This document shows, one piece after another, positions 19,199 through 31,089 of a stretch of DNA of 64,000 bases (position 1 is its first letter; each line of letters starts with the position of its first letter). Source of the DNA: Ophelia neglecta (lineage: Eukaryota); the NCBI GenBank assembly GCA_965285935.1, contig OZ260664.1, positions 22,506,001 to 22,570,000 on the forward strand. The letters are read 5' to 3'. The notes under the pieces are model-generated. The model saw only the letters and a list, made by a program, of their open reading frames with translations, did no database searches and had not been told where the DNA came from. The position numbers and the translations under genes are program-made.

Positions 19199-20731
19199 TC
19201 ACCTTGCTTTGAAATGTACCTTATATGGTCTTGGTCTGAGCACGACACCTGGAATTGGGTCAAGGCTGTAGGTCACATGGTCTACTGGGGTCACATTGAA
19301 TTTCTGGAGCAGTTTAACAAGAAAGAGAAACACCTCAGTTCGGGAAATGTTCTCACCGACACATTGTCGCCTCCCGATTCCAAATGCAGAGTATTGTGAT
19401 GCAAGTTCTGGGTTTATAATGCCATTTTTCAGAAATCGATCTGGCTTAAATAGAAAAGGATCTTCCCATAGTTCACTATCTCTGTTGATAGAATACAGAT
19501 TGACTAGCACAAACGTATTAGTTGGTACCTGCCAGCCGTTCAGCGATGTGTCTTTGATGGTAGAATGAGGAAGAGCGAACGGTACTGCCGTTGAGTGGCG
19601 CAGAACCTCATGTACGCATGCGTGAGTGTAATGCATATTGTTCATCAGGGCAACAGTTGGCTTTCGGTTCTTCCCCATGACGACGTCTATTTCATCCTGT
19701 ACACGCTTTTGCACATCCGGGTTTACTGCCATGTAAAGCACTGTCCAGGAAATAGTGAGATAAACAATATCTAACCCCGCACCTAGGTATTCTTGCACAG
19801 TGTGCATCACGTGATCCGGTTCTAATACGCATGGTCGTCGGACGCCGATCTCAATCAGTGCGTCCAAACAGTCACGAATGCGGCCTGACTCAAAGGTTTC
19901 TAGATGTCGAGCTTCCTCCTTTCGAGTTAGTCTAAGAATGTCGTGGCACACATCTTCAATCTCGCGACACAGATGGGACATGAAAACACGTGCCCAGGGG
20001 AAGAAATTTAACAGATTTCCACGATTGTGGCAACCTATCAGCTGCAAGGTTTTTTCTACCATTTTAATAAAATCCTCACCTGTGCAGTTACCATAGCAGA
20101 GTCGATATTTAGCACGCGCAACTGCCCATATAATGTCTTTCTCTGGGTTAATTGCACAGCCCTCATAACTTTTGAGTTTTTCCAACAAACTGGTGAATTC
20201 TTCGTCGATTGTACTGTCAAGAAATCCGCAGCTTTTTACACCCAGTTTGATTGCTCGTTCTGCCAGTTTCCGGTGCGCCTTCCATTGCGGACTGTAGCTA
20301 TTGAATACCATGCTCTTACCTTCGGATGCCTTTTGAAATGTCAATAAGGGTGGTCGACCGGCAAAAGTAGTCGCTTGGTCTACGAGAGCCTTCCGAACAG
20401 TAGCCAGTCCATTAAGAACCAGGACATCGGTGTTGCCAATTTTCACCCGAAATAAGTCTCCGTGCTTCCGACGGAATGAGGCCATTGTGCTCAATATGTC
20501 TCGACTAAAGAACAGGCATGGCGTCCCAATGCCGGGCACGCTCCAGGGACCCGGGAGGGTTCGAGATGCTCGAGAACGGCGGGCTACCAATGCTGCCAAC
20601 ATAAGCAAAAGACAACTTAGAAAGACTGTCAATGTCCACAAAGTGCTCTTCTCGCAGGCTAAGGCTGTCTCCTGCCCATTGTCTGAATTGTTTTTTAAAT
20701 CTGGCGTTACTTTAAACAACACAGAGGCCAT
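19199..20731 (-). CDS. Cytochrome P450, CYP2 clan, CYP1-like (CYP1A/1C-like); uninterrupted CDS, 510 aa from first in-frame ATG
   Basis: Motifs in order: signal-anchor LWTLTVFLSCLLLMLAALVA, basic RRSRASR and proline hinge LPGPWSVPGIG; CYP1-type FAGRP and GKSMVFNSYSPQWKAHR (WxxxR); I-helix GAGLDI; K-helix EVLR; PFALPH; FKPDRF; heme motif FGIGRRQCVG (Cys codon 19361-19363). The ORF track starts at a GTG (20860), but the first in-frame ATG is at 20731. Confidence 0.95.
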   Translation of the reverse strand: MASVLFKVTPDLKNNSDNGQETALACEKSTLWTLTVFLSCLLLMLAALVARRSRASRTLPGPWSVPGIGTPCLFFSRDILSTMASFRRKHGDLFRVKIGNTDVLVLNGLATVRKALVDQATTFAGRPPLLTFQKASEGKSMVFNSYSPQWKAHRKLAERAIKLGVKSCGFLDSTIDEEFTSLLEKLKSYEGCAINPEKDIIWAVARAKYRLCYGNCTGEDFIKMVEKTLQLIGCHNRGNLLNFFPWARVFMSHLCREIEDVCHDILRLTRKEEARHLETFESGRIRDCLDALIEIGVRRPCVLEPDHVMHTVQEYLGAGLDIVYLTISWTVLYMAVNPDVQKRVQDEIDVVMGKNRKPTVALMNNMHYTHACVHEVLRHSTAVPFALPHSTIKDTSLNGWQVPTNTFVLVNLYSINRDSELWEDPFLFKPDRFLKNGIINPELASQYSAFGIGRRQCVGENISRTEVFLFLVKLLQKFNVTPVDHVTYSLDPIPGVVLRPRPYKVHFKAR

Positions 20732-20877
20732 ATCGAGTTTTCTTATGCAAAAATGTTGTCCACGTTGCCTGGCCAAACATACAGAAGGCAAACAGTGATG
20801 GTCAGCATTAGTTATAGCTGACAGCGACCAAGCTAAGAACGCATCGCTGCCTACGTGCACTGCGGGCTTACTACATC

Positions 20878-20965
20878 TGACCCCAGCGGGCCATGTATTT
20901 AGGGTTATCTAAGCCCATCGGGTCAGGGACGTTCAGTGAACGACCGACAAAGTGAACCCAGTGCA
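20878..20965 (-). promoter_or_regulatory. Candidate cis-regulatory module of the P450: nuclear-receptor half-site cluster plus TATA-like TAAATA
   Basis: TGACCC 20878-20883; GGGTCA-ggga-CGTTCA 20920-20935 (DR4-like); CGTTCA-g-TGAACG 20930-20942 (perfect IR1 palindrome); TGAACC 20953-20958; TAAATA on the minus strand at 20896-20901. Confidence 0.45.
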
Positions 20966-21630
20966 GAATGTTCTCGTCTTTGGCTGAATACTAGAAACAA
21001 GAAATTGTCCACGCCGGGTGAACACTCGGTAAACGTTCCTCACATTCCTCATTGCGATAAATTTCACAAAAATGGCAAGCTAAGACATTTAGATCCCGAA
21101 AAGAAAGTTAGTTATTGGGTCGAAATTGCAATGTTTAAGCAGGACAATCATAATTAAATAACAAAAAAAAATTTATTATCATGTACTTTGATTAGCCATT
21201 TGGATTGCCCGTCTTCGTCAGAATACAAATAACATGAGAGATCACATCTTTGTTAAATAGTTATGTATATTTGAAATATTCGTTAATAAACATACAACTT
21301 ATTTTCAACAGACTTAACTTATGTGTGCACTATTAACGGTGGTAGATCATTAGATGTATATAGTATACATTTCACCCAATGGGCCCATCTGTTCTTCTAT
21401 GTCAAAGTAGCAGTAAACAAAAACTGTACGATTACGAAAATTGATATATAAGTAATTCGGATATAAAACTAGATAAACTATGACACGACTGTGTCCTGCA
21501 ATAAGACAACTAGATACATTGACTTACTTACCCATATATATAATCAAATGTCACAAGGGGCGGGGGTCGGGGGGGGGGGGGGGTCAGGTCAGATTCTGCC
21601 CAGTAGGCAAGGCGCATTATTTAAGCCTGA

Positions 21631-21716
21631 ATGTATCTTTAGGGCCAGATCATCAGAAGTACATTCATTACCTTGCATGTATCTTTAGGGCCAGACCATC
21701 AGAAGTACATTCATTA
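21631..21716. repeat. Near-perfect tandem duplication, 46-bp period
   Basis: atgtatctttagggccaga(t/c)catcagaagtacattcatta starts at both 21631 and 21677. Confidence 0.9.
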
Positions 21717-21964
21717 TCTAATTAGTAAATGTTGACCATTTCGTTGTTTAAAACAACATTTCATGGGTTGATACAATTGAAACTTGACGCTCCTGAAATG
21801 TTTATACAAAGGACTAAATAAAAAAAAAACTGAGAAAAAAAGAGAAAATATGGGGGGGGTATAATAATAAAACGAGAGGCTGCAATTGGTAAACGTTCCG
21901 TGGCTAAGACGAATGGCGCTGCTGTTTTATAGTTGTAACAATATTATTAATTCTGTTCTATATT

Positions 21965-22575
21965 TCAGCTCATTGTATGCTGGTCTACCAGATTATATAG
22001 TTCACAAGCTCCAGAGGGTAGAGAATGCCGCAGCCCGTTTGATTGCTGGAGCAGCATACAGTGCTCAATTTACCCCCTACATGTAGGGAAGACATTGTTT
22101 GCTTGCGCGTCGTGGCATACAATATAAACTTTGTATATTGACGTTTAAATGTTTACCCAAAATGGACCCGTCCTACCTACGTGATGTGATTACCCCCTGC
22201 CAAACAAGTCGTTTACTTCGGACAGGAGGGACAAGGACACGTGAGTGCCCAGGGTAGAGAGACGCTTCTACGCGGCTCCTGCCGCCTGGAACAGCCTCCC
22301 ATGACAAATTAGACCATGTGACGAGTTCGTTTATATTTAGATCTAAACTCAAGACCCACCTGATCAGGTTGACCTTTAACTATAGCCTTCAATTACTGTG
22401 TTTCGATTGTTTTAGCAAAAACTGTTGCGCTTTCAATCGTATATTGCTTTAATTAATTTTCGTTTTTAATGTTATTTATGTTTGATGTTCTTATTCTACT
22501 AAATTTCATGTTGGATGATTTAAAATTTCAATTTATAAAACGCGCTATAAATATCTGAAATACTTATTATAAATA
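21965..22575 (+). mobile_element. 5'-truncated L2/CR1-group LINE remnant (ORF2 C-terminus plus 3' tail)
   Basis: Translates SSLYAGLPDYIVHKLQRVENAAARLI..., then IQYKLCILTFKCL..PSYL, APAAWNSLP and FRSKLKTHL with stops and frameshifts. Ends in an L2-type tail cgcgctataaata...ttattat. Confidence 0.85.
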
Positions 22576-25500
22576 GGAAAAGAATAAAATAGATAAGTGT
22601 TATGTAGAAATAGCGTAATGTAGGAGTATGTACCTTTATAGACAAAGCGAAATTATCAATGTTCATATAATTATTAAATTAGTCCAAAATCAACAGCACC
22701 TTTAAATAAATTTAAATAAAATTAAAAAGTAATATATGTTAGGATTTCCTAGGGTTGATAAAAGGTTTAATATAGAACCACAAGAATGCTATTCAATTAA
22801 GGGAAAAAATATATTAATGAATTTGTTATTTTAGTGTGGTTTCTTTTTTTTTCGTCTAAAACGTGATCGAAGCGGCCCGGTAAGCCTTCTAATTAAACTA
22901 TGGTGACTAATATATTATTAGTTCGGTATGCTCTACCATGGTTAGTAGACATTTCGTCTTTCGTTTGTGTAAGAAGCAACCTGTCTTGTTTGTTTGTGGA
23001 CCGACTGATCAATGTTTGTCAGCCGTGGTTGGTTGGTATACTAAACACCGATACCCACCGGACGACTGCCAATTAACAATGTCAATTAATTGTTTGATTG
23101 ATTGAATGATTGAATTCGATAAGTTGAGGACGCCAGTTATGGCCGTAGCGGTGGTACTGGCCGCCCTTGGAGACGCACATCAACATATACAATCAACTTG
23201 TCTACACTACAATTGACATAACATAATGTGTTGCCCATTTTAATAAAGTAGATATTTGTATACAGTCTGTCCTTTAACAACACTGCATTCATAGATATGT
23301 TGACACACAGTAACGGACCTGACTCCATATACCAATGATTGTTGCCTGAAAGTCTCTTGTTCAAAATACGTGTGCTCCATCACATGGTTATTTCCACGTG
23401 ACTTATAAAATGTTACCAGTCTTCCGGACTTTTCGCACAAAATATGCTAACGAAAGAGACCACTTCTGATTAATGAAGCAAATTAGTTGTAACGTTCGGG
23501 CTCAGTAATGCTGCACAGCGCTATGTTCTGTAACTTTACGATTACTGAAGACGTGAAAACGGGGTCAATCATAAATTTGTGAATATGAATTGCTCGCTTA
23601 AATAAGTCGACAATTTTTACAAGTTATCAGTCAGAATTCATGTGTTATAAAGATGGTTAAGCTTTTATTGCCCATAAGATTGATCAATTCATTTTGTTCA
23701 ATTTTTTTTTGTAAATGATCAAAATAAGTACATACAATAGTCCTTTTTTTAACTTGTAAAAAGCAACTGCATTATTATATTGCCGAAAAGCTGTATTAAA
23801 CCTACATTAAGGCAGGTATGTCTGCTCTTTGGTCTTGATTTAATGAACACTACACATAGTTTTTGAGTGAACGTGAACGTGAGAAGTTGCATGGCTACGC
23901 CTGTTGATTTGTGTCTCAAGCAAGCGCTTTTGTGGTAAGTGTTAAGTGACTTGACATTAGTCAGGAAGAAATAGACTGCGAATGAAGATCCGAGTGGTCA
24001 CCGTCAAGTGGAAAGTCTGGCAGTGGGTGCCGCCCTTGTTTTGAACTTTAAAATCCTTTGCAACCTTCATGGTCAGACCATGGTTCAAGGACGCCTTCGC
24101 GTTTGATGGCTCTGTTTACTCTTCTTCCGCGCTGAAGGCAAGCACATCCGACCGTCAGATAGACAACAGAGAAAAACAAGCACAGGCCTTGGGTTAACCC
24201 GGATGTTCAGTTACCTGTCAACGATGTTATCATTGATCGACCCTGATCAGAGGAAGTGACATCAACCTTAAGTTACTTGGCATGTAAGTGTCTGACCATG
24301 ATTGATACTGCTTGAATTATCTTAAACCGTTTCATTGATGTTTTCAACAACAGATAATGTTCAAGAGAAATGGACTGTTTAAACACTCTCCAGAATATTC
24401 CACGAGTATAGTATCTTCTGTTAATCTGTAAAGGACACCCCATAAAGTAACCATGTCAATTCTAGACATAGGCCTGACATCCGGTACACAGCGGAAATGT
24501 AAAGAAAAATAGTGCCAGTTCTTAGAAAGTAGTATTTTTTTTCTTGATATGAAATGTTAAGACAGCACCTTAATTAAACCTTCGATGAAGTTATTTATAG
24601 TTCCTGACATCAGCCTATTAAATACGGGGCAAATGATTTTAGACGATCTATAACGAGTTAGGCTTCAAGTATGAGATGCTGGGTAACTTTCTACAATGTT
24701 TCTAATTCTACCTACAGTAGGCTCACCTATATGATAAATATTACAAAAGTAACAAGGCGTTCGGAAAAGCCAACAGCCTATAACTAGGGAGGGAGGGGTG
24801 CATAGATCCTCCGAGACCTCGTGATTATCACCGCGCACATTACAAACCTTGTCAGATGCTCGTTGTCTCATTAACTCCCATGTCTCACTCTAACAGCGTA
24901 CATCTGCTGTCCATCTGCTGTCTTTAAAACTGAGAAAACCTGCTTCGGCTTTATCGATTCATTCACAGATGATTCAGGTGGCCTATTGACTAGAAGTAAC
25001 ATTATAGACTTCAAACCTAAATGTTTAATTTTTTTTAAATAGAGGTTTTATAATAAATTGACGACGCAAAGGCACAACATTTATCTGCGATTTTTGTGTG
25101 ACATAGACTTCTTTTTCTAATCTGCCAACAAAGCCTGAACGTCCTTTTCCTAACACAGCTTTTAAACCGCGTTGTTATAGTCAGTTAAAATAAAAGCCAT
25201 GTCTTTTTTTACCTATCCAAAAGTAAATACAACATTCAGTTAGACGAAAAACGAGTTATAATTCGGGAAATTCAAAACTCATAGTGGGTGTTTTATAGGG
25301 GAGCTGGTAATGATGGGGGGAGGGGGCAATTGTTTCTGGAGATAAGTAGGTTATAAGGGTTATGTATTCAGAGCTCTTGTTTGGCTCGAGGGAGTTGTAA
25401 TAATGGTCCACTTTCTCATGTCATGGTCAAACGAGACCGATATTTTACAATTTGTTTTGCTCATTTTCTAAACTTTGGTAAGGCATATGTTAATCATAAT

Positions 25501-26392
25501 TGCCTAAAATCATGTCTGCTACTAATCAAAATACACCATAGGACGTTTCGTAACCCCCCCCCCCCCCCCCCCCGCCCACCACCAACATCCTCCTACCCCC
25601 AACCCGTCCACCACTTGGAACATTCCTCAACAAGTTTGTTTATTGGTTAATGTCTGCTAGAATAAGTTCACTTAGCGATGAAAGTACCTCCCGTGCATTT
25701 TCATTGACATAAACTATTGCCTACCATTAACGCATTGCTAATTTGAGTCCGGTTTAGACTTTTTAGCGTCCAGAAAGGATATCAGGCCACACCAGGTCAA
25801 GTGTCTATTAGATGCACAACCAAGGCAATCTGAAAAAAATATACATTGCTGGCTCATAAATATACGCACGATGAGAAAAACACCAATGGGGCTAATTTAT
25901 CTTGGACCAGTGCGAATCAGTAAAAGGTCACATATTTAATGTTACGGTTATCTTTAACTGACGGAGGTCTCAAACAATCAGGAATGCGGAGATTAGATAA
26001 TGTACGTACCTTTTAGGCCGCAGGGAATTACTCAGGCGATGAATGATTCGGATTTACCGATCGCTTATTGGCTAGTTCTAAGTGACATTCAGTCATGTCA
26101 TGTTATGTCGGTTTTATGATTTAGTGAATGGGCCAAGTCTACAACACGTTAATTGTATGTTAAACTTCAGCATTTCATTACTTGAAAACTTTCTAGCTCA
26201 TATATTAAAGGTACTGCCAGTCAATGCAAGATAATGCAAAATCAATGTTATATTTATTTACTGATGAGCGACCGCACAAAAAGGGCCACCATTGACCTTT
26301 GGGATTCATAATTACCTTAATTTATTAGCGTAAGCCATTTGTTTACAGTAAATTGGCGCTTACTATTAACTTACGCGCTGATACCTTCCTCA

Positions 26393-26554
26393 TGTAACAA
26401 CCGGTGGTCTCAGCGGGGTTTGAACTCACTACCCTTGGGTCTCCAGCCAACCACTCTACCAAGTTTGCCAAAGGGGTAACCCCTCTAGCCAAGCTAGTAG
26501 GAGTGTTGTGATCATGCACCAGTGGCCATGACCTGCACATACATCTCTGTTACA
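26393..26554 (-). mobile_element. Solo-LTR-like element (162 bp) containing a tRNA-like Pol III promoter
   Basis: Ends TGTAACA...TGTTACA; flanking direct repeat CTCA (26389-26392 and 26555-26558); minus-strand A box TGGCAAACTTGG (26459-26470) and B box GAGTTCAAACC (26417-26427). Confidence 0.75.
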
Positions 26555-27116
26555 CTCATAAAGATTTATGTCATATAACTACGCATGCGGTCTATTGTAA
26601 TTATGTCACTTCCGGAATGTAAGGCAAAATAATAGGCCATACAGAATACTGTCTATGAGAGAGCGTATTTATTTTCGAACCCTATATTGTTGAACACAAT
26701 GTATTATATATATATGTTTCTGTATACGTAACAGCATCAATACATTTTGGGGAGGTCTTTTCAATTTACTATTTATTTATGCGCAGTACCAACACTGAGA
26801 GCTCTGGATCGAAATCCCGCGCCAGGACATTTTCTCCGTCGAAATACTCCATTCAGACTCACCTGTCTATAAATGTCTTCAATTGCGACCAACTAATACT
26901 GAGCTATAGATCGGCAGTGTTTGATACCTCATCATTGCGTATCCAAAATTTATTTTCCCCACTACATATGTAACATCATGACCCCAAACAATGTAAAAAA
27001 TTATAGACTGTACTATAACAATCACGAGGTCTTCGCCACAATTCAAAGCTTGCAATAAACCCCCCATATTAATATATACTAGCAGGCTGCTCAGAATAAT
27101 CAACTTGAAGTGCTAA

Positions 27117-28440
27117 GGGTAGGCTATTTGATATCGGGGGGGGGGGGGGGGCTAAGGAAGCTTTGAAAGAATTTTTTTGTTCTTAGTTTGTAGGAAAGAA
27201 ATAGAAAATTGTTTTGAAGGAGAAGGAAAAATTAGTTTGATGTAATTAATTCTCGGAAAAATAATATGAGAACTAAATGAAGAAGACATTGCAAGCTACT
27301 GCTATCAGAAAGAACGCACCCGTATCCTATTTTCTCTAAAACTATAGCGCTGGGTATGCATAGCAACATCAACTGGGATTTTAATATCTAATCGAAACTT
27401 AATGCGATGTATTTTTCATATACTTCCAGGCAGTCCTTTCTCTGCATATAAACGGTTTTCAAATTCGTTCTTTATATGGAAAGATTGCACTTACAATGGA
27501 ATAAGGCTATTTATTGCTGGATAATTTTTAACCAGAATTTTTCAGTTCAGCGGGAGTGTGTACGCCCTTCACGGGATCATCGCGTCACTTGGAAAACGAA
27601 AAACCAGTGGAATTTGGCAATCAGGCAGAAACAAAACGCCAGCTGACAAATTACTTTTCACAAAATGGTGTTTTTCAAAATGGTGTTTTTCAAAATGGTG
27701 TTTTTTCAATTCTATATAACCACTGACAAGGCAGTGGATGAATAAAATAAACACTAGAAACAGAAAATATGAAGCCTGTGTTTTTGCCACACACAATTTT
27801 ATTTTATAGTAAACATAAGCATTTCCTCGCTATTATAGCGCTGGGGGTGGGGGGGTGGGGTGGTATTTCCGACCCTCGGGATCGGCCTTTTAATTATCCG
27901 TTAACCGAGAATTTAAGCTTTGATTATTTTGTTAAACGAGATTTGACAATTCTTCCTGATTCGGGATCAATGATTCAAATTTACTGGAACCTGGGCATGC
28001 CCTTTTTAGATTTCCTGTGACTAGGGAATCAGTATTTCAATTTATGGAGATGCGAGGAAAAACCGTATTCCTAATAGTTTGACAAATCAAGATTATAAAC
28101 ATTCGGGATTCGCCTACAGCTCAGTAGCCGAAATACTAATCTAAAAGATTTGTGATGGCGAGTTTCATCTCTGTCGAAACGACGCTTCGCCGCTTAAGAT
28201 TTTCGGCACACTCGGGACACCGCAAAATCAAAAGAAATGAACGAGGTCAGTTTTGCGCAGCTCGCTGGCGGCCCTGCATCGGCAGCCAAGAAAAAAAAGT
28301 AATTTAATGCTGAAAAAGAAGGTTTGTCTGTCATGTATGATACAAAAATGTTTTCGTTGCTACGGAAAAAAATTGTTTGGGAAAAAAATGTTCAGCCCCC
28401 CCCCCCCCCCACACACACACATAGAATTTGATAGGGGCCT
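27117..28440. mobile_element. G-run/C-run MITE (possibly PIF/Harbinger-derived) with probable nested insertions
   Basis: taa|gggtaggctatttgatatc followed by a G run and aaaattgttt sub-repeats at the left; the same sub-repeats and a C run at 28290-28410. The right terminus is degenerate. Confidence 0.45.
27661..27706. repeat. 15-bp tandem repeat x3
   Basis: (caaaatggtgttttt)3. Confidence 0.9.
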
Positions 28441-31089
28441 AGACAATAGACAATAGACAACACAAAAAAAGGCCAAACTGCTAAACCGGATTAAATCCCG
28501 AAATAATCTGACGGGCTGAACTATGGTCCATTGGAAAAATCCAGTCCAGCACATTATCCGTCAGACCACCCCAGCAGCAGGTCTTCAGGGAAGATTTACT
28601 GTCTGCTCTACCAGACAGCAACATATTTATCAACCTCTCCACTGCATACTTGTTATCATTAGCAGTGGGGCACTCTGAACTGGACTGGAACTATCTAGAT
28701 CTAAGACGCGAGAAGACGTCACAGCAGGTTACTATGGGGAAAGTGTACGGGTTTCTGTTAGGGCTATGTAATTTAACCATTTTTCGTATGCTGGTATATT
28801 TATGCACATATTGACGTGCTATGAGGGAACTGCATACCTTGGATATTATAAGTCGTTGACGATCGTATACTTTTAAATTGGTTAAACCAAACAAAACGTA
28901 TTCAAATCGGAATTTCCCACCACTACCGCTACTATGCTAATGAGCGTTACATTAGCCTCCTCAAGGGGGGTCACTAGCATCAAGGCCAGAGGAAGATGGT
29001 ATATTTACCTACTTCTTAGTTAATAACTGTAATAATGAAGAACAATTTAATGCCAGTGTAATATCCCAACGAAAGTATTATAGATTGTTCGCAACTAGAA
29101 ATGTTATAATGGCCGTAAATGGAAAAATAAGTGGCATTTTCTACCCAAGAGGAGACATCCAAATGCTCCTAAGTCCCACATGGGAAGAGTTACAACCCTG
29201 GGTTTGTAGACACATATATATCATACATTGGTGTAGACAAAATGATATCCGAGGCGGATGGAATCTCGGGTGTGGTACATGTACTAGGGCCTGTTATGAC
29301 GGGGAGAGGCTCTGGGTTTTGGAAACCAGACCCATTCCTGTATATCTCACAAAATATAGAACCAAACATGTTAATTTGAGGAAAATTTGGACCTGATCAA
29401 TATCAAATGCAATGTGTTGTGATGGAGCGATTTATAATTTAGAATCAGAATATGGGTAAATTTGCAAGAATCTGGTTCCAGTTTTGTATTTAGCAAGTTT
29501 TCATTTTTCAATGAAAACAGAATTTTGTGAGACATTTTTCTGCCATTTCTTCTGTAAATGAACATTGAAACCCACTCATTCATGTAAGAAGTGTTCAAAA
29601 TTGGACCTCATACATCTAAATACGTCTTCTGAAAAACGCGGCACATTTCGTATGCCTACATATGGTATATAAGTGTGACCCCCTCCCCCCCGCGCGCGCC
29701 TCGAGGTTGGAACCTCATCGAATAATAGGTATTTCGCACAAGTTTGCTCACTTTAGAGAGGTAGAGCGGAAGGCCAATTACAGATAATTACCCATTGTAT
29801 ATGCTTATACATTACCAATAATCTGATGGCAAATTAGTTTTAGCTTCATCATATTTGAGGCTTAACTTCATACCACAAACCATTAAATAGTTATTAAAAC
29901 CTAATGTGACCCTATATTTGCTTCTGTTTGCTCGCATTTTTAATTCTGCTCTTGGGGTAGCATTGGCTTGCTGGGGGGGGGGGGGGAGCAAACTAAAGCA
30001 AGTCACTCATTTTTTCCAAACCAAACTATCCCAATTTTAATTGCATGAAATGATTAAATGAGGTTCATAAGCAACACACAAAACTTTTCTAACAACATCA
30101 ACATTTTCTTTTACATTTGACAGTCATTACTTAAAGTTAGTTTCTCAATCACACTTTTTGGGGAAAAAGGTGAGAAACATTAGGCAAATCTTCCAACTAA
30201 AATATATTGTAGAAAGGTAATTGATTTTCATTAAACAAATTCCTAAGTGGAATATCATTCATTAATCTATTCTTGTTCATCCGGCAGACATCGCAAAATT
30301 CTCAAAATTAGCAAATGTATCTGCGGACATTCAGACAAATATACTTCACAATAAAAACTGAAAATAGAATTATGAAGACGTAAAGAAACATCAAGTATAC
30401 CTTTATAATCAAAATCCTTGGACATTTACCTACATGTAGATATAGTCACAAGAGAAAAAAATATAAAAACTGAATTTGAATTCGATTTTAACAGTTAAAT
30501 ATATTTTTTTATTGAAATATAACACTAGATAAATAACTGTAGACAAAAATAAAACTTTTGCCCCAGTACCATGGCATATATGTAAAGCATCATAGGATAA
30601 AAAATGTCAAAAGAAAATAAGCAGGTCGGTCGTTAATTCAGTGGATGGGAATTGAATGAACTTGTTTTATTGAAAACGCAGGAGTTGGCTTGTGCTGTTG
30701 GTTAATGTTGCATGCATTTTCTAATTTTGCTCAACATTTTGCATCCATAAAAGGTTAAAATAAAAAGGCTTAGGATCTAGCCTTGCTGTTTTTATAGAAA
30801 TATTTATGTCACTTTTCCCGATTGGCCCCTTGAACATCAGCTAACTAGGTACACACCAAACATGTAGGTTATATTATTATAACAGTTCTCAAGTCACTGT
30901 TAGCACAATTAGACAAGCCAAAATGAGCATAAATAGACTAGCTTGTGAACAATATAAAAAAAGCCCCGGCGGACATTTGCAAAGATTATGGATAGGTCAA
31001 ATATCAAAGGGAAACAAAAAGGTCGGTCGAAGAAAAAAGGATAAGTTCCTAACCAAATTTTACTTGCATCCGTTATATGCTTTAAATAC

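Follow-up and report, generated by a model that had tools for sequence, protein, structure and literature searches.

What chemistry is to be expected from a P450 whose helix I carries an Ile at the position of the catalytic Thr is the question raised by a gene of the annelid Ophelia neglecta, located in a stretch of 64,000 nucleotides that was analyzed as a whole and is referred to here as the window. To our knowledge, natural animal P450s lacking this Thr are few, and several of them perform unusual chemistry. The residue aids proton delivery and limits uncoupling (PMC9366932, PMC9112060, both cited here and below from excerpts), being "important but not essential" in several P450s, and its removal raises uncoupling, as in aromatase T310A, whose coupling is 7.4% vs 26.6% (PMC9366932).

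The single long open reading frame of the window spans 19199-20908 on the minus strand, and the 510-residue frame that begins at its ATG (Table 1) shows neither intron nor internal stop. The encoded protein matches the Pfam p450 profile with an E value of 4e-91, and its heme Cys loop, ExxR motif, PDRF meander, P450 fold and N-terminal anchor characterize it as a microsomal P450; a previous sequence-only reading, which had described the enzyme as otherwise intact from the heme Cys, ExxR, PxRF and WxxxR, was right on this point. The AlphaFold2 model, obtained with a 13-row alignment (mean pLDDT 79), places a helix at residues 25-53 around the anchor and breaks helix I at 318-319. Structure searches match the model to CYP1A1 with a TM score of 0.80 and to CYP1B1 and CYP21A2 with Z of 43; the top matches are all clan-2 P450s, a likeness of fold that says nothing on chemistry. 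The best PDB sequence matches are human CYP1A1 and CYP1A2 (E value of 1e-79 and 33% identity for CYP1A1), and the heme loop aligns to that of CYP1A1 with neither gap nor insertion. No Pfam match was obtained for the other 143 stop-to-stop frames of the window (ca. 67 residues or longer), a survey that short exons would escape. Two tandem copies of 46 nucleotides (93% alike) lie at 21628-21719, ca. 0.9 kb upstream of the start codon.

Table 1. Features of the Ophelia neglecta CYP3060 gene, in window coordinates. Clade refers to the CYP3060 proteins and outside to the P450s beyond them.
Feature	Position	Strand	Observation
CDS of CYP3060-family P450	19199..20731	(-)	single exon, 510 aa + stop, ATG 20731 to stop 19199
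Membrane anchor, N-terminal, residues 31-49	20585..20641	(-)	hydropathy 2.45 over 19 residues; basic stretch and PGPW next
WxxxR of C-helix (W150-R154)	20270..20284	(-)	motif intact
Trp202, helix E, clade-specific	20126..20128	(-)	17/17 in clade and 0/60 outside; sister P0025 has Thr
His235, end of helix F, clade-specific	20027..20029	(-)	16/16 in clade and 2% of 60 outside; sister P0025 has Gln
Gly317-Ala318-Gly319-Leu320-Asp321 (groove for oxygen, with the conserved acid)	19769..19783	(-)	G317, A318, G319 and D321 each 17/17 in clade
Ile322 (ATT) at catalytic I-helix Thr position	19766..19768	(-)	CYP1A1 alignment; 16 Ile and 1 Val in 17 clade proteins
Tyr324	19760..19762	(-)	Tyr/His/Gln in clade; mostly Ser/Ala/Thr outside; Asn in sister P0025
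Thr326 (VYLT)	19754..19756	(-)	Ser 7, Ala 8, Thr 2 in 17 clade proteins; opposite an Ala of CYP1A1
ExxR of K-helix (E375-R378)	19598..19609	(-)	motif intact
Heme-ligand Cys457 in FGIGRRQCVG	19361..19363	(-)	loop length normal

Helix I reads EYLGAGLDIVYLT and contains the motif AGLDIVYLT, with Asp321-Ile322 where CYP1A1 has Asp-Thr. Since the AGLDI stretch aligns gap-free with AGFDT of both human CYP1A1 and CYP1A2, Ile322 occupies the conserved Thr position, as the sequence-only reading had claimed. The canonical acid-alcohol pair of helix I is therefore incomplete, the Asp (codon 19769-19771, minus strand) being retained and the Thr replaced by Ile. The Thr of VYLT, which that reading had named as a possible replacement, was considered as a stand-in and discarded, being poorly conserved in the clade and paired with an Ala in CYP1A1 (Table 1).

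ATT is one transition away from ACT, and an assembly error, a private variant or a decaying gene had to be weighed. Three of three contigs from DNA runs extend across the gene and are identical to the window at 19766-19768, but differ from it at 14, 13 and 20 other sites in 2 kb; all derive from the same sample and study, which may be connected with the source of the assembly, and give limited support by themselves. No RNA run was listed as containing the gene. The stronger evidence is the orthologue comparison, in which all 12 sequences with E<=1e-80 (37-48% identity) have GAGLDI. Together they refute the caveat of the earlier reading that the Ile might be a variant or an error. The contigs show 16 differences in the coding sequence, 14 of them synonymous and the two non-synonymous ones at N-terminal residues, which argues that the gene is under constraint; with the frame intact and the variation mostly silent, the chance of error, private variation or decay is negligible.

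Concerning family assignment, the orthologue is Capitella teleta CYP3060A1 (ELT98427), with 46% identity over 493 columns, above the 40% expected within a family, and the two proteins fall in one group with 99/99 support (15 clade rows). The orthologues with a species name are from two annelids, Capitella teleta and Dimorphilus gyrociliatus. Membership in the vertebrate CYP1 family would call for an identity above 40% and a position among CYP1A/B/D in the tree, whereas identity to CYP1A1 is 33% and the vertebrate CYP1s form their own branch. The previous label of a CYP1-like or CYP1-lineage enzyme thus stands as to relatedness, given the best PDB matches, but the family is CYP3060, not CYP1. 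P450 subfamilies are separated at ca. 55% identity. As the Ophelia gene is below 55% to CYP3060A1, the two probably belong to different subfamilies, although they share the single exon and the AGLDIV motif (PMC4229089, also cited from excerpts) as well as the clade.

CYP3060 was named in 2014 and there called CYP1-like (Dejong and Wilson 2014, PMC4229089). CYP3060A1 is the sole row of its Table S5 with Ile at the catalytic Thr position, our entry P0007 agrees with the CYP3060A1 supplement row over the part shown, and EST support is stated for the full-length Capitella CYPs; the excerpts of that paper tabulate the AGLDIV motif (Table S5) and hold no comment on its Ile. In a literature search that had most subscription papers outside its reach, we found no further paper naming CYP3060, nor a description in print of the clade-wide Thr loss, its probable single origin or its companion changes. 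The gene is a new member of a named, uncharacterised family.

To delimit this family, the best 150 matches of a profile search over 1.84 billion representatives were pooled with earlier matches and with loci of the same genome, and the 188 of 249 domain matches that covered helix I were aligned. The clade comprises 17 distinct proteins, after removal of a duplicate of the query and of six near-identical cluster members (all Ile), with pairwise identities of 30-83% (median 43%). Position 322 is Ile in 16 and Val in one of them, and shows the top conservation (0.94) among the 18 Ile-dominated columns; in the 164 non-clade P450 domains it is Thr in 149, Ser in 6, Asn in 4, Ala in 2, and Gly, Pro and Ile in one each. 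GAGLDI in all 12 orthologues against a single Ile in 164 non-clade domains indicates that the conservation of Ile322 is not due to chance. A second, word-index search with a second alignment added no clade members.

The phylogeny was derived from a careful tree of 24 rows, with 15 rows for the 17-protein clade (the other two, being near-copies, were omitted), from which columns 202, 235, 322 and 324 were dropped. It supports the Ile/Val clade at 99/99, with P0025, which keeps the Thr, as its sister (99/97), and FastTree is concordant. A quick tree of 52 rows, with more distant sequences, shows the vertebrate CYP1s on a separate branch and P0025 inside the clade with weak support (87). The topology suggests that the change from Thr to Ile/Val had a probable single origin; given the nesting in the quick tree, the Thr of P0025 may be a reversion. 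P0025 and P0166, both ENA proteins, are the closest Thr-keeping relatives of CYP3060, display SGLDTV and have none of the Trp, His and Tyr companions described below, thus providing a natural control for the Thr to Ile switch. A search started from P0025 yielded no named protein more closely related to it.

Other CYP1-like proteins also lack the Thr, namely P0059 (Owenia fusiformis CAH1774834, AGSHAV), P0076 (AGSEGV), P0078 (AGSEAV), P0090 (TGTQPV) and P0128 (HGSEII), and these represent additional independent losses among the CYP1-like P450s of invertebrates. The arthropod CYP307 (spook), a clan-2 enzyme near CYP1, is said to lack it as well, with an I-helix motif quite different from that of CYP3060. 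Within the Ophelia genome, at least seven similar P450 copies cluster at G000:C5:16.8-19.0 Mb (L008-L014), six of which were seen to have AGTTTT, in which the acid is lost, resembling the expanded Capitella CYP3052 family; one copy of the cluster has an internal stop.

Three positions besides 322 distinguish the clade, i.e. Trp202, His235 and Tyr324 (Table 1). From helix periodicity His235 is predicted to lie on the cavity face, and together with Thr228, Leu231 and Ile232 it builds one face of helix F that is conserved in the clade. Taking the residue roles and numbering of the aromatic slot and of SRS6 in CYP1A1 as we assume them, the alignment shows the slot residues of CYP1A replaced by Leu231, Ile/Met265 and Leu320, and the second distal Thr (SRS6) replaced by Val, Ile or Cys in 16 of 16 clade proteins. 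At 23 cavity-equivalent positions, mapped from what we take to be the cavity residues of CYP1A1 and CYP17, mean conservation is 0.82 vs 0.60 overall. The conserved cavity and helix F face point to one specific substrate rather than to broad detoxification. Residues 151, 155, 159, 454, 456 and 464, which we take from CYP2B4 and CYP1A2 work to be the reductase side, are basic in 13-16 of 16 clade proteins, at or above the level of 60 outgroup P450s; for R159 the figures are 15/16 vs 18/60.

These data bear on one functional assignment, an ordinary CYP1-like xenobiotic monooxygenase that tolerates the Ile. Vertebrate CYP1A1, CYP1A2 and CYP1B1 are the best sequence and fold matches, Thr mutants of P450s retain some activity (PMC9366932), and CYP3060A1 was put forward, from one upstream XRE, as possibly belonging to the AHR battery and acting in PAH metabolism (PMC4229089). 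However, CYP3060 differs from those CYP1s in the Thr to Ile change, the lost aromatic slot, the separate branch and an identity below 40%. A merely tolerated Ile would be expected to drift or to revert through one transition, yet it is kept in 16 of 17 proteins; moreover, CYP1-like paralogues that retain the Thr (L002-L004) are present in the genome, along with only one CYP3060 copy among the 84 scored of 311 candidates. As for regulation, no XRE was found within 10 kb upstream (20732-30732), and the window holds 14 where 14.05 are expected by chance, which further lowers the weight of this assignment; we consider it unlikely.

The explanation we favor, at a probability of roughly 0.45, is that CYP3060 would be a reductase-fed enzyme with a dedicated endogenous substrate and a Thr-independent, substrate-assisted activation of oxygen, and it is preferred because selection maintains the acid as well as the basic residues of the proximal face. 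The enzyme would be membrane-bound and would take its electrons from NADPH-P450 reductase, Asp321 and waters would still deliver protons, and a hydroxyl or comparable group on the proper substrate would supply the hydrogen bond of the missing Thr, as in P450eryF. Ile322 would keep the pocket dry, and His235 and Thr228 on helix F may help to hold a substrate that is probably lipid- or sterol-like rather than a flat aromatic pollutant. Counting against an eryF-like mechanism, enzymes of that type have an Ala that leaves space for water, and Ile is bulky; P450eryF has Ala and P450cin Asn at the Thr site, rather than Ile. The rise in uncoupling on removal of the Thr, as in aromatase T310A, also weighs against a Thr-independent monooxygenase. 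The Thr252Ile mutant of P450cam reportedly retains about a tenth of its activity. P450eryF (CYP107A1), P450cin and peroxygenases are without the acid-alcohol pair (PMC9366932, PMC9112060), and the first two are natural monooxygenases which the predicted activity of CYP3060 would resemble, although they are bacterial and soluble. Also against substrate-assisted monooxygenation, the documented natural Ile cases, thromboxane synthase and fungal 8S-allene oxide synthase, are peroxide enzymes (PMC13049297, again from excerpts).

A variant of reductase-fed catalysis would use the unprotonated ferric-peroxo species, as C-C lyase, deformylase or Baeyer-Villiger chemistry, with the dry pocket slowing protonation. 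The retained Asp and the reductase face are compatible with it, and the steroid enzymes CYP17 and CYP21 are among the close structural neighbours. The CYP17A1 lyase keeps its catalytic Thr, though, and we judge this variant very unlikely. Protonation slows when the Thr is missing, as is well established for P450s (PMC9112060, PMC9366932), but aromatase, a known lyase, keeps the residue as T310 (PMC9366932).

The main competitor of substrate-assisted monooxygenation is a self-sufficient peroxide-converting P450 of the thromboxane synthase or allene oxide synthase type, whose ferric heme would homolytically split a lipid hydroperoxide or endoperoxide in a dry pocket, with neither O2 nor reductase, to yield an oxylipin signal. 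CYP5A1 belongs to clan 3 and CYP74 enzymes are marked by a distal Asn in helix I and a heme-loop insertion. The sequence-only reading had pointed out that thromboxane synthase has Ile at the same site, and this holds: Ile322 corresponds to Ile345 of AGYEI345, a non-polar distal axial residue also found as Ile in the fungal 8S-allene oxide synthase, and CYP5A1 shares Ala-Gly and an acid as well (PMC13049297). Both enzymes convert peroxides with no need of an electron chain, thromboxane synthase doing so despite its acid and Ala-Gly (PMC13049297). Because CYP5A1 is of a separate lineage, the likeness would be convergent. The SRS6 change is in line with peroxide chemistry, though the Thr-keeping sister P0025 also has Val there. 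Lipoxygenase-domain matches occur at four places in the genome, so hydroperoxides could be produced; these and the documented Ile cases give the peroxide alternative its weight.

Opposed to peroxide chemistry are the retained basic residues of the reductase side, above all R159, and the lack of CYP74 clan or CYP8A1 features, with an Ile in place of the distal Asn and a heme loop devoid of insertion. Pfam searches of the window frames recognized no oxylipin gene beside the P450. No cyclooxygenase-like exon was seen in 30 of 44 peroxidase-family loci or in 16 motif matches, which weakens PGH2 as a substrate, bearing in mind that exon-wise and motif searches can miss one. Under the peroxide alternative, CYP3060 would be an annelid-wide P450 that descends from a monooxygenase of the CYP1-like type and reached thromboxane-synthase-type chemistry by convergence. 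Hydroperoxides made by lipoxygenase would be its substrates and a novel oxylipin signal of annelids its product, with no need of oxygen or reductase, and P0025 would stand for the pre-switch state; we regard this scenario as possible, if doubtful. The sequence-only reading had suggested peroxide isomerase or peroxygenase activity; the retained Asp and basic residues agree no less well with a reductase-fed enzyme than with peroxide chemistry, two options which sequence alone cannot separate.

Further observations were made in these genome searches. The lipoxygenase-domain match L048 (G000:C9:32474767-32475426, plus strand) lies ca. 4.5 kb from the clan-2 P450 L005 (G000:C9:32479876-32481306, minus strand), a single-exon gene whose helix I, AGTSTT, retains the Thr and has lost the acid; the two might form an oxylipin gene pair. 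A cluster of about three heme peroxidase genes is located at G000:C2:68.89-68.94 Mb (L019-L021 and others), with motifs of the peroxidase rather than the cyclooxygenase type. The motif search also met a near-identical dispersed repeat at seven places on four contigs (L053, L054, L056, L058, L060, L063 and L064).

These results call into question whether CYP3060 can serve as a pollution biomarker in the manner of CYP1, a use suggested in 2014 from homology and one XRE (PMC4229089). Here a whole conserved, apparently single-copy family probably lost its Thr once and shows three companion changes, and the sister that keeps the Thr can serve as control. CYP3060 would therefore offer a clean case of mechanism change in a P450, and is a candidate for a new endogenous annelid pathway, which may be of oxylipin or sterol nature.
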